A stretch of 64,000 nucleotides of DNA, taken from contig JAQBGV010000193.1 in the NCBI GenBank assembly GCA_032128395.1, positions 7,764 to 71,763 of the forward strand, in the 5' to 3' direction. The position numbers and the translations under genes are program-made. Source of the DNA: Planctomycetota bacterium. Lineage in GTDB: Bacteria; Planctomycetota; UBA8108; UBA1146. Shown here piece by piece: positions 4,305 to 63,350 of this stretch. How positions within the stretch are numbered: position 1 is the stretch's first letter; every line of letters begins with the position of its first letter. The notes below the pieces were generated by a model that worked only from the letters and a program-made list of their open reading frames with translations, was not told the origin of the DNA and made no database searches.

Positions 4305-5546
4305 TCAGCGAGATCCGGTCGAACTGTAGAACGGGGGAACCGGGCGGTCCGGGAGCTGGAAGTAGATTCCGTACGAAAGGGCGACGACCGGGTACTTCAC
4401 GTACAGCCGGTAGTGACGGAATTCAGCGAGCTCCAGGTCGGCGTGCTCGCAGACGGTGGCGACCAAGTCGCCGTAGCGCGGGAACGGCTTGAAGGCCATC
4501 CCGCGGGGATCGGTTCCGAGCGAGTGGAGCGATTCGCAGAAGTCGTGGCGGTCGATCCCGCGGCTCGGAGCCTCTGTGGGGGTGAGCAGATTCTGTCCTC
4601 GGTTGATCTCGAGGCGGGGAACGACGCCGCGCCAGACGTCCGGGTGGACGAACACATCCAGGAGCATGTCCTTCGACGGATTCCGCGGGAGGAACACGAA
4701 CGGGGCTGCGAGCATCTCTCGTCGTCGGTAGCGGGGCGAGGCATTCTTGTCGATCGATGCGAAGAACATCGAGAGCTCGCGGCTCTCCCCGGCATCGTCA
4801 CCGGGGAGGGTGTAGAGGAGACGCTTCCCATCGGCGACCAGGTCCACCTCGGGAAATGGATCGGTCGACAAGCTCTTCAGCGCGACCGAATAGCCGCTCC
4901 GGTCGAGCCTCCCACCGTGGAGTACCTGCTCGGCCTGCGGGAGATCTTGATCGCTCTCGCCGGAGAGCACCCTCCCCCCCACCAGAATCGTCAACTCGGG
5001 TCGCAGCCGGCGCAGGCCATGACTGCCATAGATCGCCAGCTCGTCGCACCATTCGTCGCTGTCCACGGACGGATAGACGAAAAAAGTGGTGAGTACGACA
5101 TCGTTCTGCAGCCCGAGCAGGTTGCTCATGCCGCGAAAGATGCTCTGTTTGCTGGTCGCCTCGATCTTCTCGCGCGCATCGACCAGCTGACTCCCGATCA
5201 GAGTGTCGAGGTTCGACTTCCTGCCGCCGAGGCTCGCGATCGCATCCTCGAGATGATCGATCGCCTCCCCTGCGCGACCGCAGACGTTGGCAGCGACCCC
5301 GCGGGCTCGCCCCGCCTCGAGGACCGTGCGCAGGCTTCCAGTCGCGGGGAGCTGATGGAGGGCACGGAGTGGGTCGTCATTTCGGAGGGCGCTGCAGGTC
5401 CGCACGCAGAGGGTCTGGTCGAGCGACCAGACGCGAGAGAGGTCCGTGGGGCGGGGAAGACGTCCATCGGTCGAAACGAGGCTGATCAAGGCCTCGAGAA
5501 GCTCGGCACCGACTTCCTTCAGTGACTCCGCCGTCACGTTTCCCAA
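4305..5546 (-). CDS. hypothetical protein (~413 aa, no recognisable domain), last gene of the TPR-phosphatase operon
   Basis: Long ORF with ordinary, non-Arg-rich composition after a TTG start that is preceded by AAGGAGG. The upstream part of the track ORF (to 5597) has no SD. I recognised no catalytic motifs. Confidence 0.45.
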   Translation of the reverse strand: MGNVTAESLKEVGAELLEALISLVSTDGRLPRPTDLSRVWSLDQTLCVRTCSALRNDDPLRALHQLPATGSLRTVLEAGRARGVAANVCGRAGEAIDHLEDAIASLGGRKSNLDTLIGSQLVDAREKIEATSKQSIFRGMSNLLGLQNDVVLTTFFVYPSVDSDEWCDELAIYGSHGLRRLRPELTILVGGRVLSGESDQDLPQAEQVLHGGRLDRSGYSVALKSLSTDPFPEVDLVADGKRLLYTLPGDDAGESRELSMFFASIDKNASPRYRRREMLAAPFVFLPRNPSKDMLLDVFVHPDVWRGVVPRLEINRGQNLLTPTEAPSRGIDRHDFCESLHSLGTDPRGMAFKPFPRYGDLVATVCEHADLELAEFRHYRLYVKYPVVALSYGIYFQLPDRPVPPFYSSTGSR

Positions 5547-11711: not shown

Positions 11712-11797
11712 GAGGGACTGTCCCGACGGCGGTCTGCAGAGCGGCTGCAGAGAGCTCAGCGCGGCCGCGCTGCAATCGACCGTCGGGACAGTTCCTC
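11712..11797. repeat. palindromic intergenic element, family B (GAGGGACTGTCCCGACGG ... CCGTCGGGACAGTTCCTC)
   Basis: Inverted arms at 11712-11729 and 11780-11797. The interior contains CTGCAGAG x2 and a perfect palindrome AGCGCGGCCGCGCT. Homologous copy at 27106-27174. Left-arm-only copies at 20564-20586 and 55875-55898. Confidence 0.7.
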
Positions 11798-14706: not shown

Positions 14707-14794
14707 CTCGACCGAGCCCCTCGATCCGCAGGACGTCCCCGTCAGCCCCGGACCCATGAGACGCAACCGGGGCCCGAGGGGCAAGGGATCCCTT

Positions 14795-14974
14795 GGATGG
14801 GACTGGCTCGCCGAAGGTGATGCCTGTCCCGGACGCCTCGCCTACCGGTTCACCTTCGTTCCAATAGGTCTGCGTCTCCCCGTTACCGGATCTTGTGCGA
14901 TCGTGATTGCTCGGAGTACCGCCCGAGGTTCGGGACAGGCATCAGCGCTGTGCGCTGAGCCAGTCCCATCATCC
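14795..14974. repeat. MITE-like element, family A copy 1 (~40-bp terminal inverted repeats)
   Basis: Left arm GGATGGGACTGGCTCGCCGAAGGTGATGCCTGTCCCGGAC (14795-14834). Right arm CGGGACAGGCATCAGCGCTGTGCGCTGAGCCAGTCCCATCATCC (14931-14974). Each arm is itself a GGGAC..GTCCC hairpin. The element is intergenic between SulP and the DUF4287-like gene. Confidence 0.8.
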
Positions 14975-15023
14975 AAGTCCTCGGGGAGTGACTCCACCCG
15001 CTCGATGTCAGGAACCGGATACT

Positions 15024-15653
15024 TCACCCGTCTAGTTCGTACGCGACCCGCAGCCACTTCTCCACCGTGCCATCGATCTCATCGACCGAGGTGATCGGAA
15101 TGCGGTGGGTGATCCGGTCCTTCTTCTCGATTCCACCGGTGTCGATCAGTCGAGCGGGAATCCTCCCCTTCGCCCCCTTCAGAGCGAGGCCGAAGTCGAC
15201 CCGGGAGCGCGTCGACGGCTTCACCTCGGCGATCACGTGCTCGCGGTAGACGGGGACGATCGTCTTGCACGGACAGATGAGGATGTCTTTCCCGATCGAG
15301 CGGGCGAGCGCGACGAGCGCATCGTGAACCGGGCGCAGCTCCGCCTTCGCTCCGGAATACATCGTCTCGACGTACTCGCTCGCCTGACGCAGATACGCCT
15401 TCGCGTCGGTCCATTCGGCGCAGCGGCCGATGCTCAGGTCGGCGAGCATCCCTGCAGTCGTCATCCCGAGACCGTGTTCGGCCTTCAACCAGGCGCGGCG
15501 CGCCTTCGACTCGGCGGGGAGCTTCGCGCGAGCGATGAGACGGTTCCACTGCTCGACCGAACGTCCGGTCTTCTCGGGGATGTTCTCGACCACCTTCTGC
15601 GCGTAGGCGACGGACGGGTGAAGATCGTAGGACGCAGCCTGACGTCGAACCAT
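15024..15653 (-). CDS. DUF4287/DUF5655-like domain protein
   Basis: Start MVRRQAASYDL... with a GAGGAG SD 7 nt upstream. The sequence pattern (AYAQKVVENIPEKTGRSVEQW...; ICPCKTIVPVYREHVIAEVKP) resembles DUF4287 plus DUF5655 as far as I recall. The family assignment is tentative. Confidence 0.45.
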   Translation of the reverse strand: MVRRQAASYDLHPSVAYAQKVVENIPEKTGRSVEQWNRLIARAKLPAESKARRAWLKAEHGLGMTTAGMLADLSIGRCAEWTDAKAYLRQASEYVETMYSGAKAELRPVHDALVALARSIGKDILICPCKTIVPVYREHVIAEVKPSTRSRVDFGLALKGAKGRIPARLIDTGGIEKKDRITHRIPITSVDEIDGTVEKWLRVAYELDG

Positions 15654-16204: not shown

Positions 16205-16496
16205 CGGGGTGCTCCCCTCTTTCCACTCGTCCGACGGGTCCTCGCCGGGTACCCGCCCATCATGGCCCAGGAACCGGGCTTGGGCACGAACTCCAGCCCG
16301 GAGCGAGCCCACCGCGTCCGAAGACTGAGTTGCGCCCAGGGGTGCATTCGTGTTGAAATGCGTCGGCTATCACGCCATCTCGGAGGCTCAGAGGAGGGTC
16401 TCCGAGCGGGCTCGTCTGATCCGAAACAAGAAGCGAAGCATCCTCCCGCGGAATCGGGTCGCTCTGGTCCCGTGCGGTGGGTCGCGATCGTCGAGA

Positions 16497-19400
16497 GTGA
16501 GGTGGGGTGTGACGGTGCTCAATGCCGCGCGTGGGGCATTCATCGCGGCGGTCCTCGGAGCACTGCTCCTGACCTCCCCCGCGCAGGCCTTTACCGGTTG
16601 TGTGAACTCTGCCACCGCCGGCCATTACACCGTCGACTTCCTCGGCGTCGCCTACAACCCAGACGGCACGAGCACCTGGAACTACACCGTCACGTGGGAC
16701 GGTATCCCCCCTTCGCTCAGCCACTTCACGCTGAAGCTCTGCCATCAGGCCGAAGTGATCTCATCCGTTCCCGCGGGAGCGGAGGTCGGGTACGACGGAT
16801 CGACCGGTCTCTACGGGATCAAGTGGGACGACGTCACCATCGAAACCCCGGGCGTTCCGGTCCCGTTCACCTTCACGCTCGATCAGCCCTACGCGATCTC
16901 AGGGACGATCTTCGCGGCGAAGGCGGGGCCGTACCCGAACTTCGGCTGGATCTGCGGGCCGAGCAAGAAGTGCAAACTCGCACTCGTGCCCCCCAGCGAC
17001 CTCGTCTGCACCGTCCTCGATCCGTGCACCTGCGAAACACTGCTGACCTGGACGAACATCAGCGTGGTCGACCTGATCAACGTGCGGGTCGACGGGGTTC
17101 TGGTTGCAACTCTCCCCGGCGACACGACCTCCACCATCATCACCGTGAAGCCCGGGACCCACGCGATCGAGGTCACCGGGGTCATCGATCCTGCCGGCGA
17201 CGGCTACCAGCACGGGGGCGGTTCATACCCCTTTGGTGGCGGCGGGTATGGGGATGATGACGACGACGACGATGACGACGACGACGACGACGATGACGAC
17301 GACGACGACGACGGCAACCCGGGAGACAACGACCAGGAGACCGACCCCGCGATCTGCGAGGTCATCTGCCCCGACCACACCCCGGTCCCCCCCAAGGATC
17401 TCGTCTGCACTCCCGACCCGCTCGACTGCTCGGTCACGGTCTCCTGGGTGAACTCGCGCGACTACACCGAGATCATCGTCTTCCTCGATGGCCTCCCCTT
17501 CGAAACACTGCCGGGGAGTGCGACGAGCACGATGATCGGCGGGCCGCTGATCGGTTCGCACGGGGTCTGCCTGGCGGGCACGACGACGTGCGGCGACCCG
17601 TTCGCCGAGGTCTGCTGCCAGTTTTCCTGCGATGACCCCACCCCACCCCCGGTGACCGACCTCGTCTGTGAGGTCGCGGACATCTGCACCTGCGAGACCG
17701 AGGTCTCGTGGACGAACGGGGCGGCGAACTACGATTCGATCGAGGTGTTCGTCGACGGGAACTCCGCCGCGATCCTTCCAGGGTCGGCGACCTCGACGGT
17801 CGTCCTTCTCGGCGGGCCGGGAGAACACGTGATCTGCGTCGTCGCGACCCGGAACGAGTTCACGAGTGAGTTCGCCTGCTGCGGCGCGAATTGCCCGGCC
17901 ATCCCCGACGATCCTCCTTTCGCTCTGACCTGCGACGCGCCGCCGGCGCCGAATTGCGAGGCGAGCGCGATCTGGCTCGGGGGCGGCGTGTACTCCCAGA
18001 TCGAGGTTCTTCTCGACGGGGTCGTGGCCCAGGTTCTCCCCGGCGATACGTTCGAGACCACCGTGGCGATCCCCACCTCGGGGCCGCACGAACTCTGCCT
18101 GCGGGCGACGACGATCTGCGGGGTCGTGCTTCCGGACGTCTGCTGCACGGTCGAGTGCATCGGACCCCCCGACCCGATCACCGATCTGACCTGCACACTC
18201 GTCGACCTGTGCAAGTGTCTCTTCACGCTCGACTGGACCAACGGGAACCCCGACTACGACACAATCCAGGTCCTGATCGACGGGGTGCTCCACGAACGGA
18301 TCCCGGGCGACACGACCTCGCTCGCGCTGACGCTCCCCACCCCTGGCCTCCACGAAATTTGCCTGGTCCCGGTTCGCGCCGCGCTGCCCGGTCCCGAGAC
18401 GTGCTGCTCGGTGGACTGCCCCGACGTGCCCCCGGCGATGCCGGAGAATCTGGTCTGCACTTTTGACCCTCTGACGTGCATCTTCACGGTGATGTGGTCG
18501 AACCCGGTCCCGTACTCATCGCTCGAGATCTTCGTCGACGGCGTCGCCGCCGGGACCGCTCCGGGGGGCGCGTCCTCCTTCTCGATCCCGTTCCCGCTCA
18601 TCGGCCAGCACGAGATCTGCGTGGAGGGAACGACGATCTGCGAAGAGGTGACCCCCGCCGCGTGCTGTTCGGTCGAGTGCCAGATCCAGCCGCCCCTGCC
18701 GGTGCTCGATCTGGCGTGTGGGGTGGTCGATCCGTGCACCTGCATCGTCGCCGTCGCGTGGACGAACCAGGAGGCGAACTACGTCTCCGTCGAGGTCACC
18801 GTCGACGGAGTTCCATTCGCTTCCTTGGCCGGTACTGCGACCAACCTCGCGGTGACGCTCCCGGGTCCGGGAAACCACGTGATCTGCGTCTTCCCGATCC
18901 GCAACGGGGTCTCCGGCGATCAGGTTTGCTGCAAGGCGAACTGCCCGATCACCGACCCGATCCCCCCCGTGCTGCTCGAGTGTGTCGTCGACAAGCCGTC
19001 CGCGACCGCCACGATCAGTTGGCTGCCATCCGCGCTCTACTCCCAGGTCGAAGTGTTCCTGAACGGCGTGCTGGTCGAGACAGCGCCGGGGGACGCGACT
19101 TCGGCGTCGGTAGTTCTGACGCTGCCCGGCGTGAACACTCTCTCGCTGATCGCGACCACCGTCTGCGGTGAGGTGACCCCCGCGGTGAGTTGTGAGGTCA
19201 CCTCGGGGCTGACCCCGGTGATGATCAACGGACTCAGCTGCTCTCTCGTGTCCCAGTGCACCTGTGACGCGACGGCGACGTGGACCAACGGCGAGCTGTA
19301 CGACTCGATCATCATCCAAGTCAACGGGATCGTGGTCGCCACGCTCCCCGGAGATGCCGTCACGGCAGACTTCACTCTGGGAGCCCCCGGCACGCGCGAG

Positions 19401-20537
19401 GTCTGCGTCGTCCCGGTCATCAACTTGGTCGAGGGAGATGCCGTCTGCTGCATGGTGACCTGCGATGATGTACCGCTGACCCCACCGAACGGGATCACCT
19501 GCGACGTCGGCCCCGCACCCGACTGCGAAACCACCGTGACCTGGCTCAACCACTCGCAGTACGAGTCGATCCAAGTCACGCTCGACGGGGTGGTCATCAG
19601 CACCCAGCCGGGAGACGAGACGCAGACGACCGTGCTGCTCCCCGGCCCGGGTGCGCACCAGATTTGCCTCGTCGCGACGACGATCTGCGCCGACGTGCTC
19701 CCTCCGGTCTGCTGCACCGCGATGTGCGACTTCCCACCGGCGCCGCCGGAGAACGTCGTCTGCACCCTCGACGATCCGTGCCTCTGCACCGGAACGGTCA
19801 CCTGGACGAACGCGGACGCCGACTACGACGAGCTGATCGTCGAGGTCGACGGTGTGGTGATCGCGACCCTCCCCGGCAGCGCGACGAGCGCGCCGGTCGG
19901 ACCGGTCGCCCCCGGCCCCCACAACGTCTGCGTGACCGCGGTGCGGACGGGGCTCAGCTCCCCCGAAGTGTGCTGCGCCCTCGACTGTCCCGGCCCGCCG
20001 GCGCCGATCCCACCGAGCGGCCTGGTGTGTGGGGTCATCGACAATGGAACCTGCACGGTGAGCCTCGACTGGACGAACTCGATGCCGTACGGCGCCATCC
20101 AGATCCTCGCGGACGGGGTCGTCTGGGCCGATCTCGCCGGAAGTGCGACCCACTACGAGGCACCGCTCCCCGGTGGCATCACGAGTTCCGAGCTCTGCCT
20201 CGTCGCGACGACCGAGTGCGGCGACGCCGCCAACCAGGTCTGTTGTACGGTGGAGTGCCAGACCCAGTTCGTCCGAGGGGACTGCAACGTCGACGGAATC
20301 GTGAACATCGCCGACGGCGTCTACATCATGCGATTCCTCTTCCAGGGTTTCACGCCGAGCATCTGCCTCGATGCCTGCGACCACAACAGCGACGGCTTGG
20401 TCGACATCTCCGACGTGGTGTTCATCCTCCACTACATCTTCACCAGTGGTCCGCCCCCGCTCGCACCGTTCCCCGACTGCGGGGTCGACGTGGATGAAGT
20501 CCCGGGGTGCAACACGTATCCGTTCTGCTCGAACTGA
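16497..20537 (+). CDS. giant secreted protein: ~12 tandem Cys-rich ~88-aa modules, poly-Asp tract, C-terminal dockerin-like module
   Basis: Signal peptide ...VLNAARGAFIAAVLGALLLTSPAQA; the start is ambiguous among GTG 16497, 16509 and 16515. The repeating module is DLVCT.DP..C...V.W.N...Y..I.V..DG.....LPG.ATS......PG.HEIC...TT.CG.....CC.V.C, about 264 nt per unit over 16998-20270. D20 occurs at 17253-17312. C-terminus is GDCNVDGIVNIADGVYIMRFLF...DHNSDGLVDISDVVFILHYIFTSGPPPLAPFPDCG...C..YPFC. Confidence 0.8.
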   Translation: MRWGVTVLNAARGAFIAAVLGALLLTSPAQAFTGCVNSATAGHYTVDFLGVAYNPDGTSTWNYTVTWDGIPPSLSHFTLKLCHQAEVISSVPAGAEVGYDGSTGLYGIKWDDVTIETPGVPVPFTFTLDQPYAISGTIFAAKAGPYPNFGWICGPSKKCKLALVPPSDLVCTVLDPCTCETLLTWTNISVVDLINVRVDGVLVATLPGDTTSTIITVKPGTHAIEVTGVIDPAGDGYQHGGGSYPFGGGGYGDDDDDDDDDDDDDDDDDDDDGNPGDNDQETDPAICEVICPDHTPVPPKDLVCTPDPLDCSVTVSWVNSRDYTEIIVFLDGLPFETLPGSATSTMIGGPLIGSHGVCLAGTTTCGDPFAEVCCQFSCDDPTPPPVTDLVCEVADICTCETEVSWTNGAANYDSIEVFVDGNSAAILPGSATSTVVLLGGPGEHVICVVATRNEFTSEFACCGANCPAIPDDPPFALTCDAPPAPNCEASAIWLGGGVYSQIEVLLDGVVAQVLPGDTFETTVAIPTSGPHELCLRATTICGVVLPDVCCTVECIGPPDPITDLTCTLVDLCKCLFTLDWTNGNPDYDTIQVLIDGVLHERIPGDTTSLALTLPTPGLHEICLVPVRAALPGPETCCSVDCPDVPPAMPENLVCTFDPLTCIFTVMWSNPVPYSSLEIFVDGVAAGTAPGGASSFSIPFPLIGQHEICVEGTTICEEVTPAACCSVECQIQPPLPVLDLACGVVDPCTCIVAVAWTNQEANYVSVEVTVDGVPFASLAGTATNLAVTLPGPGNHVICVFPIRNGVSGDQVCCKANCPITDPIPPVLLECVVDKPSATATISWLPSALYSQVEVFLNGVLVETAPGDATSASVVLTLPGVNTLSLIATTVCGEVTPAVSCEVTSGLTPVMINGLSCSLVSQCTCDATATWTNGELYDSIIIQVNGIVVATLPGDAVTADFTLGAPGTREVCVVPVINLVEGDAVCCMVTCDDVPLTPPNGITCDVGPAPDCETTVTWLNHSQYESIQVTLDGVVISTQPGDETQTTVLLPGPGAHQICLVATTICADVLPPVCCTAMCDFPPAPPENVVCTLDDPCLCTGTVTWTNADADYDELIVEVDGVVIATLPGSATSAPVGPVAPGPHNVCVTAVRTGLSSPEVCCALDCPGPPAPIPPSGLVCGVIDNGTCTVSLDWTNSMPYGAIQILADGVVWADLAGSATHYEAPLPGGITSSELCLVATTECGDAANQVCCTVECQTQFVRGDCNVDGIVNIADGVYIMRFLFQGFTPSICLDACDHNSDGLVDISDVVFILHYIFTSGPPPLAPFPDCGVDVDEVPGCNTYPFCSN
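17253..17312 (+). repeat. (GAY)20 trinucleotide repeat encoding poly-Asp
   Basis: gatgatgacgacgacgacgatgacgacgac... gives 20 consecutive Asp codons inside the giant protein gene. Confidence 0.9.
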
Positions 20538-23772: not shown

Positions 23773-23952
23773 TCGTCTCGTCGGCTGGACGGTTCCATCG
23801 ACTCTGGCCGCCGGGACGGGCACCCCGGTGGCGAGCCAGTCCCCACGCATTTCACGGCCATCGTCTGCGCAACAGGTTCCACGCTCGCCTCTGGGTCGAG
23901 AATCTCAGAAGATCAGGACGGATCCTCCGAGCTCGCGCATCCAGGGAGAAGA

Positions 23953-27334: not shown

Positions 27335-28225
27335 GTGTCTCGTCGAATTCTCCCGATCCTCTCCATCGTCGCTCTGGTCGCCTCCTCCGCCTTCGCGGGC
27401 GAAGCCAACGACACTTTTTCGCGGGGGGACGCGAACCGGGATGGCGCACTGAACATCGCGGACGCCGTCTTCGTGCTCGACTATCTCTTCGGCGGAGCCG
27501 GCGCCGTTCTCCCCTGTCAGGACGCCGCCGATGCGAACGACGACGGGGCGATCGACATCGCGGACCCGATCCTCATGCTCGGCTATCTGTTCGTGCCGCC
27601 GCTGACGCCGCTCGTCGCACCGTTCCCGAACCCCGGTTCCGACCCGACCGCCGACGGCCTCACCTGCGCACCGATCGACTGCGCGAACGCCGCGGAGGTC
27701 GATGCTCTGCTCACGCTGCTCATCGGAACCTACCCTCTTCCCGGTGCGGTTCCACCGCAGACGATCACACAGTCCGGAGTGACGGTCGAGATCTTCGCCG
27801 CGGACGCGGTGGTGACCGTCGACAGCGTCAGCTACGACCCGATCACGGATACGTTCTCCGCATCGGGCACCGCAGGCGCCCCGGCGGTACCGACGACGAT
27901 CACCGCGTTCCTGATCAACGTCAGCTGCGATATCGCGGTGACCGGCAACTGGAGCATGACCGGTTCGCTCGACACCATCCCGATCAGCGCAGAGGCGTCC
28001 GAGGTCGTCGGCGTGACCCCGGGATCGGTGACATCATCGGTGACGAATACGAACATCGACTTTTCGGCGTGCGGGGGGATCGGCGTGATTCTTTCGATCG
28101 TCTCCGGTCTCTTCGATGCCGCGATCCAGGACGCGATCGATCAGATCGAGGTCCAGCTCGAGGCACAGATCACACAGGCCGTCGACGCAGTGATCGGGAC
28201 GACGCCGCTAATCGTCTGCGAGTAA
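27335..28225 (+). CDS. secreted protein with N-terminal dockerin-like module and Ser/Thr/Val-rich C-terminal domain
   Basis: GTG 27335 (SD GGAAGG). Signal peptide SRRILPILSIVALVASSAFA. Dockerin-like pair GDANRDGALNIADAVFVLDYLF / DANDDGAIDIADPILMLGYLF followed by PPLTPLVAPFPNPG. Confidence 0.6.
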   Translation: MSRRILPILSIVALVASSAFAGEANDTFSRGDANRDGALNIADAVFVLDYLFGGAGAVLPCQDAADANDDGAIDIADPILMLGYLFVPPLTPLVAPFPNPGSDPTADGLTCAPIDCANAAEVDALLTLLIGTYPLPGAVPPQTITQSGVTVEIFAADAVVTVDSVSYDPITDTFSASGTAGAPAVPTTITAFLINVSCDIAVTGNWSMTGSLDTIPISAEASEVVGVTPGSVTSSVTNTNIDFSACGGIGVILSIVSGLFDAAIQDAIDQIEVQLEAQITQAVDAVIGTTPLIVCE

Positions 28226-39101: not shown

Positions 39102-39304
39102 GTCGCCTCCTGCCTTTCCGACGCCCCTTCCCGCGCCGCTCCAGACCACCAGGAGCTCGACGCGGACGGGAGAAGAGGAAGCAGGCGGCGTGCCGCGCAC
39201 GTGGAGGTGCGTAGGTCATGAGGAGATGGGGAGTTGGGTGACGAGCGGTGGAGGAGCGGGAGTGTCCCTGTCAGGGAATCGGACAGGGTGGGAGATCGGT
39301 ATTG

Positions 39305-39467
39305 GGATGATGGGACTGGCTCGCCGAAGGTGATGCCTGTCCCGGACCTCCGCCGGTACTCCGACGAATTAGGTTCGCTGCGAAACGGTCGTGAGAACCC
39401 GTTCATCAGACGTGGATCTGCGGGCAAGCGTCCGGGACAGGCATCACCTTCGGCGAGCCCGTCCCAG
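39305..39467. repeat. MITE-like element, family A copy 2
   Basis: Left arm GGATGATGGGACTGGCTCGCCGAAGGTGATGCCTGTCCCGGAC (39305-39347). Right arm GTCCGGGACAGGCATCACCTTCGGCGAGCCCGTCCC (39430-39465). Located just downstream of rnc. Confidence 0.8.
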
Positions 39468-40659: not shown

Positions 40660-41871
40660 GTGAATTTCCCCCCGAATCCGCCGCTCCCGCGTCCGTCGAC
40701 GTCCTCGGGCGCTTCCGGCAAGGCCGGGTCGACGCGCTCCGCTCCCGCCGTGTACCCCGTCGGGGGACATGTCCTGTCGATCTTCGATCTTCTCGCCCGG
40801 TTCACCGAGACCGCCTACATGGTCGATGGCATCTCTCGGCTCTCCGACCTGCACCTCACCGTCGGCGAACCGATCCGGTACCGCTTCGATGGCGAGCTCG
40901 TCACGCTCCCCGACGCATTTCCCGTCACGCCGGAGATCCTCGAGCAACTGCTCGCCCCGATCCTGAGCGAGGAGCAACTGGCTCGGCTCCGGTCGAGTAC
41001 GCAGGAATCGGTCGATGCCGGCTTCGAGTGGGCCGAGAGGGCGCTCAGCTTCCGGATCAACGTCTTCCACGATCGTCACGGACTCGCGTCCGCGATCCGC
41101 GTCCTCCCCCGCAGCATCCCACCCCTCTCGGGAATCGGGTTCCCGGATGAGTCGGTGTGGCGGGAGATCGTCGACCTCTCCCAAGGTCTCGTCATCGTGA
41201 CCGGGGTCACCGGAAGCGGGAAGTCGACGACGATTGCGAGCATCCTGCAACACATCAACCGCAACCGAGGGGCTCGGATCATCACCCTCGAGGATCCGAT
41301 CGAGTACGTGCTCGACAGCGAGAAGGCGCTCGTCTCCCAGCGCGAGCTCGGCCGCCACCTCTCGAGTTTCTCGGATGGTCTGCGCAGCGCCCTGCGCGAA
41401 GACCCGGACGTGATCTTCGTCGGCGAGATCCGCGACCGGGAGACGGGGTCACTCGCTCTCACCGCGGCCGAGACCGGACACCTCGTCCTGACCACGCTCC
41501 ACACCCGCGACACTCGAGGGGCGATCACTCGGCTCGTCGACCTCTTCCCCGCGGAACGAACGAAGGAGCTGAGCACGCAACTCTCGTTCGCGCTCTCGAC
41601 GATCATCGGGCAGAAGCTGGTGCCGAACGCCGTAGGGGGAGGCCGACGCGTCGCGATGGAAGTCCTCAAGAACACGCCTTCGATCGCGCACCTGATCCGG
41701 AGCGGCAAGTGGGAGCAGATCTACACGACGATCGAGACGCAGCGCGCCGCGGGGATGATCACGATGGAGCGGCATCTGATGTCGCTGGTCGAGCAAGGGA
41801 AGATCACGAGGGAAGCCGCACTCCACGCGGCGAACACCCGGTCGCTGCTCGCATTCCTCGGCGAAAAGTAG
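40660..41871 (+). CDS. pilT: type IV pilus retraction ATPase PilT/PilU family
   Basis: Walker A GVTGSGKSTT, Walker B/Asp box PDVIFVGEIRD and His box LVLTTLHTRD. GTG 40660 has a perfect AAGGAG SD 5 nt upstream. There is a ~40-aa N-terminal extension before the conserved core. Confidence 0.85.
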   Translation: MNFPPNPPLPRPSTSSGASGKAGSTRSAPAVYPVGGHVLSIFDLLARFTETAYMVDGISRLSDLHLTVGEPIRYRFDGELVTLPDAFPVTPEILEQLLAPILSEEQLARLRSSTQESVDAGFEWAERALSFRINVFHDRHGLASAIRVLPRSIPPLSGIGFPDESVWREIVDLSQGLVIVTGVTGSGKSTTIASILQHINRNRGARIITLEDPIEYVLDSEKALVSQRELGRHLSSFSDGLRSALREDPDVIFVGEIRDRETGSLALTAAETGHLVLTTLHTRDTRGAITRLVDLFPAERTKELSTQLSFALSTIIGQKLVPNAVGGGRRVAMEVLKNTPSIAHLIRSGKWEQIYTTIETQRAAGMITMERHLMSLVEQGKITREAALHAANTRSLLAFLGEK

Positions 41872-41991
41872 GGGACTGGCTCACCGCAGGTGATGCCTGT
41901 CCCGGACGCTCGCCCGTTGCTCCATAGCTCTCAAACCAGGCGATCCTCCGGGACAGGCAGCACGGCTTCGCCGCGAGCCAGTCCCATCATC
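41868..41991. repeat. MITE-like element, family A copy 3
   Basis: Left arm GTAGGGGACTGGCTCACCGCAGGTGATGCCTGTCCCGGAC (41868-41907; it includes the pilT stop TAG). Right arm CCGGGACAGGCAGCACGGCTTCGCCGCGAGCCAGTCCCATCATCC (41948-41991). Confidence 0.8.
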
Positions 41992-42018
41992 CATTCGCGC
42001 ACTCGCCAGCAACTCTCC

Positions 42019-45000
42019 TCAATGACTCACCAGGATCGTCACGTCATCGTCGACGATCTCGGCTCCGAGATGGATCGACCATCCCCCCGGGCCGCGGGAT
42101 ACGGCCTTATAGGGATAGAAGCCGGGGCTGAGGAGCGGAACGACGAGGCGGGCGCGGGCGCGAAGGGCGATCGTTCCGTCGGTCCGCCACTCTCTTCCCC
42201 GCCACACCCACCGCGGCAGCTCGATCCACGCGTCGGGGTCGTTCAGCACCGACTCGCCGAGCTGAAAGATCAGGTCGTACGCGTCCCTCTCGATCTGGAT
42301 CGGATCGCCGCCGAGCAGTTCTCCCCCCGAGAGCGGGATGGGGCGCGCGGTCCCGACCTCGAAATCGAGCGTGTGCCTCGATGCACTCTGAGGGATGAGC
42401 GAGATACAGACCGTCGAGGCGCCGGACGGCAGCGGGAGTTGCACGCGTCCGTTCCGGACGGGGGCGGCGCGGAGTCGGCCGGGGTCGCTCGGATCGTCGG
42501 TGACGATCGCAAAGCCGCTATCGAGAAGTTTCCCGTTCAGTCTCGCGATCGCCGGGCGGAAGTCCGCGTCGATCTCGAGGCGCAGATTCTTCCGGAACCC
42601 GGGGATCACGGCGGTCTCCGCGCTCGGCCCCACGATCCCGGCGGGGAGCGCGGTAGGTCCCCAGTCGAGTTGGTAGCGCCCGGGTCGCACGTCCCGGTAG
42701 GTCGTCGGCTCCCGCGTGAGGATCTCTCCCAGGTCGATCTTTCCCTCTTCGGGATCGTCGGAGATGAAGGAGAGCCGGAAGCGATCCTGCAGCGGGTCGG
42801 ATCCCGATCCTTGACGGATCGCGGCGATCACGAGCTCGTTCCCGTCGGCGAGGAACAGCGTCGCGGGAGGACCGTCGAGGTCTACGGGAGAGAGCACCGC
42901 CGGCGTCGATCCGGGCATCTTCGCGACGAGGGCGAGCACGGCATTCCGATCGATACCCGTGAGGTCGATCGAGAAGACTCCGCCGGCGCCCGACTCGACG
43001 CGTCGGCGGATGTTCCTGGGATCGAGATCGCGCCCCGGGTACCGATGTGCCGCGCTGGGGTGCATGAGGACGACCTCCGCCCCCGCGGCACCCTCCCCGC
43101 CATCGAGGAGCACCACTCCCTTGAGCGTGCGGCGCTCCTCGAGGAAGAAGGGCTCCGCTTCGTTCTCGCCGGGGGCGAGGTCGAGAATGACGACGGTCGC
43201 GGTCGCGGTCGAGTCGTGTCGGATCTCGCGGATGTGGATGCCGGACGCGAGCCCGCCGACTTTGAAACGGCCGTGATCGAGCGAGAAGGGGGCGGTCTCT
43301 CCGTAGCGGATCGTCGTGCCCTCGGGCCATTCCTTCCCCGCGGGGGCGACGATCGGGATCACCCGGCCGGTCCCGTCGAGACGTCGCTGACCGAGATCGC
43401 GGAGTTCCGACGCGAGACTCGCCGCTCTCACGAGCTGGATCGGTCGGGTGATCTCTCCCCCGGCGGGAACGGTCACGTACATCGGGATCCTCTCGGAGGT
43501 AGGAGGCTCGACGTGAATGCGATTCGGGACGTCGTACACCGTCTCGATCAGATAGATCCCCGCCCCGAGCTCCTCTCCTCCGGACGGGGTTCCCTCCCCG
43601 AGGTTCGGATCGATCGGCGTCGAGGTGACCAGTGCATTCGCGACAGGCATGCCCGAAGCGCTCAGCACCGTGACGATGACTTCGTTCCGCTCGGCCGCGG
43701 GGAGCTCGATCATCGCCTCGGAGAAACGTCCATCCACCGTGACCACGAGCGGGTAGACGCCATCCTCCTCCTCGATGCTCTCCCAGTGCAGCGCGTACTC
43801 ACCGGGGAGCAAGAACCGTGCTTCGAGGTAAGGGGGTTTGCCGATCGGGAACTGCCGGACCAGATCGACCACCTCGTGATCGCGGTCCTGGAACCCCTCG
43901 AGCCACGCCTCGGGGGGAAGGGTCGGACCGGCGCCCTCGATCCGGAAGTAGAATCGCGCGACGCGCGGCTCGGTCGGAGCGAGGGTCCCTAGCATCACGT
44001 ATCCGGGTTCGGTCCGACCGCGCGGCTCTGCATCGGCGAAGAGGGCGCCGCTTCCGAGCGCGAGCGCCTCGAAGAGTCGTGCCCCTTCGACCCAGTCCTC
44101 GGACCCGAAAGTTCCATCCGGGGCCAGGCGGTACGAGGCGCGGATCACCGGGTCCTGTTCGTCCCCGCGACGGATCCGTTCGATGATCCGGTAGCGCGGG
44201 GTCTCCCAGGGGGGGATGCCGACCACTCGCCCCGTGGTGATGAAGCGATTCGCGTCGGAGGTGAAGAGCGGGATCGCCAGGCCGACGTCGGTATCTTCGT
44301 TGGCCAGGCGAAACTCGCCGTGAACTTCGGTGATCCAGGGTCCGGTCACTCGGAAGCGATAGAAGCGCATCGGATCGAGCCCTCCGACCAGGGCCCGCGA
44401 CCCACCCGAAATCGGGGTTCGGAAGCGTGAGGCGGCGAACTCCTCCCCCGAAATCTCGAGGACCGCACCTTCGAGGTCGGATGGTCCGACTCCCGAGAGC
44501 AGCACCGAGACCGCGTCGCGAGCGGGCACGACCAAGTCACCGAGGTCGAGCGTGGTCGCCTGGTCCGACCGCGCGGGGGTGATCACCTCGACGGGGGCCG
44601 CATCGCGCGCGGCCACGATGAGGCGCTGCCCTTCGGGTGGGAGCTGGCCGACGAACTCGGCGTAGCCTTCCCGGTCGCGGTGCACCGAGGTCAGGTCGGC
44701 GGAGATCCTGACTTGCTCGGCGGGGACCGGTCGCGGCTGGTTCTGGTCATCGAGCTGGACGAGACGCAGGGAGAGCCGCGGGGCGGGGCGCCCGTCGAGC
44801 CAGAGTCGACTCGGGTGCCCGGGGATGAAGAACTCGCGCGACGCATCACGAAAGGATGCATCGAGGACCCTCAGGGTCACGACCTTCGGCAGGTCGACGA
44901 GCTGGGGGGCTTTCGGTTCGCGCTCGGCGACTCCGAATCGGAAGGACCCCGCCAGGTCGGTGCGTACCCGGAAGGTGCGGGCATTCTCGCGGATGGTCAG

Positions 45001-55855: not shown

Positions 55856-55905
55856 GGGCTCGCCCAATCCGTGCGGGACTGTCCCGACGGTCGGCTGCTC
55901 CACCA

Positions 55906-62845: not shown

Positions 62846-62978
62846 GCGCGGGAGTGTCGCAAGGGGCGACCGGGTGGGCAACTCCAGTTTCAGGCCTCGT
62901 AGAGCACTCACGAGTCACCCCAACGAGCTCGCCTCTGGCTCGGGGGGGCTGGAACGATGAGGGGACTGGCTCTCCATT

Positions 62979-63350
62979 TCACTCGCCCCACGCTGCGCGA
63001 ATTCGCTTCAGCTTCGGGAACGGCCTCGGCCACGGCCACCACTTTCTCGGCCAGCGGATCTCGATCAGGTCGATGCGCACGCCACCCGGGCTTCGACTCC
63101 GTCCGTGCAACCATTCGGCGGCGCGGGCGATGCGTTGCATCTGGCGGGATGAGAGCTCGACCGGGTGGTCGCTGCTGCGAGTCTTCACCTCGACCACGAG
63201 TAACATCTTCGTCGATCGTTCGAGGGCGACGATGTCGATCTCGCCGATCGGGGTCCGCCGGTTTCGCGCGAGAATTCTTGCGCCGGTGAGGCGCAGGTAC
63301 CACACCGCGATGGTCTCCCCCCGACGACCGAGCGACGAGCGATGATCCGT
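62979..63350 (-). CDS. yraN: YraN/UPF0102-family endonuclease-like protein
   Basis: AVWYLRLTGARILARNRRTPIGEIDIVALERSTKMLLVVEVKTRS matches the YraN core. The start is uncertain (no in-frame ATG before rplS), so an alternative start codon is assumed. Confidence 0.5.
   Translation of the reverse strand, partial: TDHRSSLGRRGETIAVWYLRLTGARILARNRRTPIGEIDIVALERSTKMLLVVEVKTRSSDHPVELSSRQMQRIARAAEWLHGRSRSPGGVRIDLIEIRWPRKWWPWPRPFPKLKRIRAAWGE

Follow-up and report, generated by a model that had tools for sequence, protein, structure and literature searches.

REP/BIME sequences with TnpA-REP are the Escherichia coli counterpart of REPIN-RAYT systems. In such systems, REP sequences are arranged as doublets that form hairpins (Bertels and Rainey, 2011, PMC3116915). 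TIRtrons combine TIR repeats, some of them self-complementary and clustered, with TIR-associated tyrosine transposases (TIRYT), and the same study describes CGTC-tagged REPs with stems of 8-9 bp that start with A-T pairs and loops of 4-5 nt (Di Nocera et al., 2013, PMC3733652). Class 3 of the TnpA-Y1 enzymes, from Planctomycetes and Acidobacteria, is associated with 'atypical secondary structures', a CnGA foot and a Y----Q motif (Quentin et al., 2018, PMC6006769). The window analysed here, the whole 64-kb stretch of DNA (66.7% G+C), holds a small dispersed repeat in three genuine copies, each consisting of two hairpins in inverted orientation. These elements are probably REPIN-type doublets, non-autonomous and moved by a REP-associated tyrosine transposase (RAYT) encoded elsewhere in the genome.

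Copy 1 (14795-14974, minus strand; fold z of -6.5) is composed of a hairpin at 14799-14830, T-type on the plus strand, a 101-nt spacer (14831-14931), a second hairpin at 14932-14967, T-type on the minus strand, and a GGATGAT head at 14968-14974 that is read on the minus strand. Copy 2 (39305-39467, plus strand; z of -10.9) starts with its GGATGAT head (39305-39311), followed by hairpins at 39312-39343 and 39434-39465 that enclose 90 nt, and copy 3 (41868-41992, minus strand; z of -5.9) has hairpins at 41872-41903 and 41950-41985, a spacer of 46 nt and its head at 41986-41992, again on the minus strand. An earlier note on this DNA had placed three full copies at these positions, with the right ends for copies 1 and 2 and an end one base short, 41991, for copy 3; its description of the spacers as 40-95 bp of unrelated sequence has to be corrected, both for length and because they are partly homologous between copies. 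The elements have a polarity, which is seen when copies 1 and 3 are reverse-complemented and aligned with copy 2 in forward orientation: GGATGAT is complete at one end of each, and the opposite end terminates with the hairpin. In one arm of each element, CGTC lies one base from the hairpin foot (GCGTCCGGGAC).

All hairpins in the window are intergenic, as the earlier note had it for the three copies, and their flanking genes are ordinary chromosomal ones. Copy 1 lies between the start of a SulP gene (14706) and the stop of a DUF5655 gene (15024), and copy 2 between the start of a dockerin-protein gene (39200) and the stop of an RNase III gene (39486), all four on the minus strand. Copy 3 separates two convergent genes, a PilT-like ATPase, whose TAG stop codon (41869-41871) directly adjoins the first hairpin, and an ORF of 1408 aa with its stop at 42019. 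The ORF at 14756-15094, which runs through copy 1, fails the GC3 gene screen and is thus probably spurious, in agreement with the initial suspicion; in annotation, such elements create spurious ORFs and should be masked as repeats rather than called as genes.

Using a covariance model built solely from 27 Nitrospira hairpins, unrelated to the window copies, we detected seven hairpins in the window, all with E ≤ 8e-6: the six arms, each of which is indeed a hairpin, and a solitary one of the same family at 23812-23843 on the minus strand (GGGACTGGCTCGCCACCGGGGTGCCCGTCCC; 30.3 bits, E 2e-7), which had been missed when the six arms were first listed. The solitary hairpin is intergenic between two minus-strand ORFs, downstream of the one ending at 23913 and 14 nt upstream of the ATG at 23798. 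Nothing else in the 64 kb matches the model above 15 bits; a second small family, of GGGACTGTCCC stubs, follows at 15 bits. A degenerate arm had also been proposed at about 62951-62985, of which only a 5' half with its head is present, at 62956-62972 on the plus strand (GATGAGGGGACTGGCTC), with no 3' half and no detection by the model. The 36-nt arm core GGGACTGGCTCGCCGAAGGTGATGCCTGTCCCGGAC has four matches at up to two mismatches in the window, against zero expected, and the inner 15-mer of the arm matches all six arms (6 observed, 0.36 expected). Of the hairpins, about 32-36 nt long, four of the six arms can accordingly be called near-identical, as all had been; those at 14932-14967 and 41950-41985 have the hairpin base in common with the others and different upper stems.

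Several other features were observed in the window. The second small family, with the stub GGGACTGTCCCGACGG, occurs at 11712-11797, as an inverted pair (11712-11748 and 11761-11797), and at 55875-55890; its stub resembles the outermost part of the present hairpin and has CGTC at its foot, on the opposite strand. Just beyond the head of copy 2 is another small hairpin (CCCTGTC...GACAGGG, 39264-39290), with Rfam matches at chance level. A TPP riboswitch (Rfam RF00059, 64 bits) at 2828-2929 on the minus strand is directly adjoined by 18-nt tandem repeats, about seven in number (CCGAAGAGGACAGGGCCG; 2683-2823). A very large ORF at 16350-20537 contains internal repeats of about 525 nt and dockerin-like repeat motifs, which are also found at 27428-27593.

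The arms follow the layout GGGAC-T-GGC-T-(upper stem and loop)-T-GCC-T-GTCCC, with an invariant base, GGGAC-T-GGC / GCC-T-GTCCC, in which the T.T mismatches are conserved as well. The six arms have four different upper stems, TCGCC/GGTGA, TCACC/GGTGA, TCAGCGC/GCGCTGA and CGCGGC/GCCGTG, and all of them pair. An alignment fitted to the model covers 115 distinct hairpins, taken from the window, from metagenomes and from taxa other than Nitrospira. In this set the eight pairs of the lower helix, partly fixed by the search patterns, are invariant, with 99.9% of cells paired and an unpaired cell as the lone exception. In the upper stem, unconstrained by those patterns, all six modelled pairs change on both sides (50 such cells, versus 13 in shuffles), and the observed covariation score was reached by none of 500 shuffles. 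The upper stem also pairs far better than its shuffled versions, and compensatory changes are seen within the Nitrospira class too. In the halves that the search pattern left free, T.T is retained in 38 of 42 doublets, and A.A is retained equally often (38 of 42). On the T-type strand, the upper stems contain 38 G.T wobbles versus 6 A.C mismatches (p about 1e-6), an excess that points to selection on one strand, in the form of either single-stranded DNA or RNA. A base that is kept together with the mismatches that weaken it, below a top that is only kept paired, is what would be expected from a protein that recognises a folded single strand.

The two hairpins of a doublet have a fixed arrangement. 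Among loci that had been chosen regardless of a partner hairpin, 17 adjacent inverted pairs run T-type then A-type and none the reverse, and copies 1, 2 and 3 all follow the same order. Because the T of the left arm faces the A of the right arm, each doublet of the window also folds into a single long hairpin, with z values of -5.9 to -10.9. The check for target-site duplications suggested in the earlier note gave none at any of the three copies, and direct repeats in the flanks of 79 doublets were at chance level for k = 2-8. Solitary hairpins are found at many other loci in addition to the one in the window.

The family is not confined to the three loci of this window. For this strain, three Logan assemblies and an NCBI MAG all have their ends within the elements, with break points in an arm of copy 1 (L098), in the spacer of copy 1 (L101) and inside copy 2 (L102). 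Breaks within the elements in independent assemblies of one strain, three in this case, are the usual sign of a multi-copy repeat and imply many similar copies; elements of this kind break short-read assemblies. The MAG contig departs from the window over its first 46 nt (L102, 1-46) and matches it from a point inside copy 2 onwards, a junction that is probably an assembly join across repeat copies.

Beyond this strain, the same hairpin base was found at more than 200 loci, in Nitrospirota, Planctomycetota, Desulfuromonadales, other taxa and metagenomes. A scan of one genome per species with the pattern GGGACTGGCTC-N(7-17)-TGCCTGTCCCG gave at least 97 loci, and a scan of metagenomes for doublets at least 120. 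According to the record titles, in which MAG labels need care, the genome matches listed include at least about 69 from Nitrospirota, among them the complete genome of Nitrospira moscoviensis, at least 15 from Planctomycetota (Pirellulaceae, Schlesneria, Isosphaeraceae and others), at least five from Desulfuromonadales, Geobacteraceae or the isolate Geomonas propionica, and single loci from Caulobacterales, Pseudomonadales, WOR-3, Bipolaricaulota, Clostridiales and Betaproteobacteria. The general hairpin had no match in viral contigs, the window-specific arm variant none in metagenome contigs, and copy 2 only chance-level matches in plasmids. No neighbour protein recurs among the at least 97 genome loci listed; the protein clusters around them are translations of the repeat itself.

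Some of these loci have features of their own. The Nitrospira hairpins are contained in a dispersed element of about 300 nt with its own terminal inverted repeats (GCCCGCAWTATTCATGA), which is conserved across many MAGs (L010, L011, L015, L044, L054, L066 and others) and adjoins unrelated genes. The contig labelled Betaproteobacteria (L078) carries this Nitrospira-type composite element almost unchanged and, judging by that resemblance, may be a Nitrospira contig that was binned wrongly. The hairpin of a gut Clostridiales MAG (L049, about 4400-4570) belongs to a head-to-tail array of units of about 64 nt; elsewhere the copies are dispersed.

Neither a RAYT nor any other Y1_Tnp gene was found within the 64-kb window, and no Y1/HUH gene is adjacent to a hairpin at the at least 97 genome loci listed, where the lone Y1 gene is IS200-like, lies 1.8 kb away and has no flanking hairpins (L030). 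A gene between clustered hairpins (L034) was considered as a transposase and rejected, since its ORF translations read as a toxin-antitoxin-like pair. The metagenomic doublet loci, whose DNA had been selected for hairpin content alone, were searched by HMM, phmmer and tblastn with the RAYT/TIRYT proteins of Additional file 5 of PMC3733652, and they contain two intact RAYT genes (L180 and L153) and one fragment (L146). In L180, a doublet starts 45 nt past the stop codon of a 221-aa gene (648-1313), with another hairpin 400 nt further on. In L153, the gene extends from 568 to the contig end on the minus strand, its ATG is preceded by a GGGACAGGC...GCCTGTCCC hairpin at a distance of 43 nt, and a doublet at 33-115 lies within the 3' part of the gene, or truncates it, after the catalytic core; in the RAYT reading frame this doublet translates as ...GTGSAKAVPVP.... 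Intragenic REP insertions have been reported for another RAYT subclass (Quentin et al., 2018, PMC6006769). The third locus, a 1.9-kb contig, holds five hairpins and a disrupted RAYT gene of which the N-terminal 33 residues are left, and at 1360-1840 four or five tandem repeats of about 120 nt (GGACACGGATAAAATCTGATTACACGGATC...) interrupt that gene.

Sequence identity is 60% between the L180 and L153 proteins and 45-51% between them and the TIRYTs rba 2408, dau 2153 and gbm 2474 of PMC3733652. The two intact proteins score 80.7 and 88.5 with NCBIfam NF047646, 'REP-associated tyrosine transposase' (cutoff 80), both also reach Pfam Y1_Tnp, and H-x-H and Y-x-x-x-N-P motifs can be read in their translations. 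The earlier note had named IS200/IS605 or IS630 as possible cognates: the former comes close, given that the linked RAYTs belong to the same HUH/Y1 superfamily, and the DDE-type IS630 is wrong. RAYT genes are carried by just two or three of the roughly 217 hairpin-selected loci listed, none of them from reference genomes, which counts against our preferred explanation. Yet the hairpin-selected DNA amounts to about 1.3 Mb, and to find two or three of these genes there, all of them in contact with hairpins, is more than we would expect if a multi-megabase genome has one or a few RAYT genes; the numbers are small, and the link between hairpin and RAYT is best described as probable and not proven.

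RAYT homologues from Geobacter, Rhodopirellula and Planctomycetota MAGs are flanked by other repeats and not by the present hairpin, a further point against the preferred explanation as far as the planctomycete homologues are concerned. The Geobacter homologue has its own repeat ATTACGGGGACACCATAC, that of a Planctomycetota MAG AAAGGGGTCAGGTCTC and that of Rhodopirellula AAGGTGTC...GACACCTT; in favour of that explanation, a GGGG(A/T)(C/G)A motif is shared by the first two (GGGGACACCATAC and GGGGTCAGGTCTC, respectively).

A different reading of the same hairpins takes them for an RNA element, that is a 3'-end stabiliser, a terminator or a protein-binding hairpin that spread by recombination or duplication with no dedicated transposase, its conserved base being bound by an RNA-binding factor of the host that is itself widely conserved. 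We consider this unlikely as the main explanation, although several observations agree with it. Hairpins directly follow stop codons, at 41869-41871 in the window and at loci L064, L070 and L075; from whichever side a doublet is transcribed, the U.U-type hairpin is the first to be reached; wobble pairs are tolerated on the T-type strand only; and an A-run and a T-run enclose the hairpin in Schlesneria and Pirellulaceae, much as in a bidirectional terminator. Selection on RNA would account for the wobble asymmetry and the position after stop codons just as selection on single-stranded DNA would, which weakens both as arguments for a RAYT. Against the RNA element, however, the window copies gave no terminator-like call and continue after the stem with GGAC... 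and no U-tract, and Rfam yielded no family match, either at gathering thresholds for the window and 20 loci or at permissive E-values for copy 2, its only matches being the TPP riboswitch in the window and a tRNA in one locus. Solitary hairpins show no clear bias in orientation relative to the upstream gene (8 versus 5, from crude ORF-based gene calls). Dispersal to unrelated loci, physical linkage to RAYT genes and conserved mismatches that weaken the hairpin are left unexplained by this reading.

It is less likely still, and in our view improbable, that the elements are inert relics, the decayed and functionless ends of former RAYT-type transposon units that are immobile in this lineage. The window without a RAYT, the remnant half-arm at 62956-62972 and the different upper stems among the arms would suit such decay, as would the relatives whose PilT is 78-82% identical, in which the RNase III-PilT synteny is kept and the hairpin is absent at both sites; the divergence of their intergenic DNA is too great for insertion boundaries to be drawn. 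In contrast, four arms identical or nearly so over 36 nt suggest recent copying, the stems are preserved by compensatory changes, and the assembly breaks imply many similar copies. In one of these relatives (PilT 82% identical; L103, 11210-11440), the site of copy 3 is occupied by three tandem units of about 70 nt of a different palindromic repeat, GGGGGCTGGCACCCAGCCCCC ... CCGCGGCGAAGCCGCGG.

The elements had originally been taken for a MITE with terminal inverted repeats of about 40 bp, that is a deletion derivative of a DDE-transposase IS, with arms bound as double-stranded DNA and moved by cut-and-paste, and two inverted arms, a short non-coding core, several copies and intergenic sites do recall one, but this reading is largely refuted and now very improbable given the missing target-site duplications in the three copies and the 79 doublets, arms that are each a self-complementary hairpin with a covarying upper stem and also occur alone, asymmetric ends with the full GGATGAT on one side only, the lack of an IS with these ends in the window, and a linked gene that in other contigs encodes a Y1/HUH enzyme.

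For REPIN-type doublets mobilised by a RAYT, the following sequence of events may be proposed. In single-stranded DNA, each arm would fold, or both arms would pair into one long hairpin; a RAYT of the RAYT/TIRYT type, an HUH/Y1 enzyme encoded elsewhere, would recognise the invariant base with its T.T mismatches and would cut and rejoin the single strand, leaving no target-site duplication, and the elements would in this way spread through intergenic DNA. As no RAYT gene lies in the window, we infer mobilisation in this genome, by an enzyme of the L180/L153 lineage that would be encoded in it and would move these copies. Hairpins inserted just after genes would also be transcribed and may protect mRNA 3' ends, so that a role at the RNA level, as a secondary or alternative function, is a live candidate.

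Whether the base is the recognition module of one RAYT lineage that moved horizontally together with its hairpins among Nitrospirota, Planctomycetota, Desulfuromonadales and possibly more phyla is a more tentative matter, and we regard it as possible but rather doubtful. If true, it would represent a mobile REPIN-RAYT system with a conserved DNA code, in contrast to the prevailing picture of lineage-specific, vertically inherited systems. A REP-type hairpin with a base identical across distant phyla and a freely variable top offers, with L180 and L153 as candidate transposases, a RAYT recognition code that is directly testable in vitro, and the family can serve as a marker for asking if REPIN-RAYT systems cross phyla.

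The ends of IS200/IS605 elements are hairpins in direct orientation, whereas the present hairpins are inverted. The elements resemble MITEs and the palindrome-associated elements derived from IS200/IS605 in being small and non-coding, with terminal structures and a transposase acting in trans, and differ from DDE-type MITEs in lacking target-site duplications; no parent IS with the same termini was found in the window or in the fetched loci. The general character assigned to them in the earlier note, a non-coding, repeated, intergenic and REP-like family too small to encode its own transposase, holds, as does its separation from catalogued families, since it is absent from Rfam and from the REP catalogues that are searchable. 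The REP surveys that could be searched do not mention the hairpin, the 11-mer GGGACTGGCTC was not found in the literature text searched, and the supplementary table of PMC6006769 does not contain the sequence.

Compared with the TIRtrons, the repeats that flank related RAYT lineages share the published GGGGWSAS-type motif (PMC3733652), which fits the Geobacter and Planctomycetota MAG repeats and many copies of the present hairpin (GGGGACAGGC), with GGGGACAC and GGGGTCAG as the versions of the related lineages. GGGGACAG is found in Nitrospira, in some other copies and in L180, and most window arms read T/C-GGGACAG; since the base before GGGAC in the window arms is usually not G, they match the motif just partly. 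Unlike in TIRtrons, the repeat unit is a complete hairpin and not a simple inverted end, and it was not found in the text of PMC3733652 or in its Additional file 5. The published CGTC families could be ruled out by their short stems starting with A-T, although CGTC near the hairpin foot, which is not universal in the present family, is a likeness, and CGTCG stands beside the inner foot in many metagenomic doublets. With the class 3 TnpA-Y1 systems the family shares high-copy atypical hairpins that lack a GTAG foot beside Y1 genes, in the same phylum; it differs in the Y-x-x-x-N-P motif of the L180 and L153 proteins, which is class 2-like, and no CnGA foot was seen.

The closest comparison is with REPIN-RAYT. 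The canonical GT[AG]G foot of REP/REPIN sequences is absent, which argues against the preferred explanation as does the lack of a cognate RAYT within the window; the feet are GGATGAT, TTGGAT, AAAGCT and similar, and GTAG stands solely at the 41868 arm, where it overlaps the stop codon. The stem, of about 14 bp or more, is longer and contains two T.T mismatches that are conserved, and the window spacers are long (46-101 nt). As in REPIN-RAYT systems, on the other hand, the units are short imperfect palindromes, intergenic, dispersed and mostly placed after genes, they form inverted pairs in one preferred arrangement that fold into a long hairpin without target-site duplication, and in L153 and L180 a Y1/HUH transposase gene is flanked by the same hairpins. 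We regard the elements as a new family of a known kind, REP/REPIN with RAYT, unusual mainly for a hairpin base that is conserved across phyla, where the REP families described so far are mostly confined to one genus or species.
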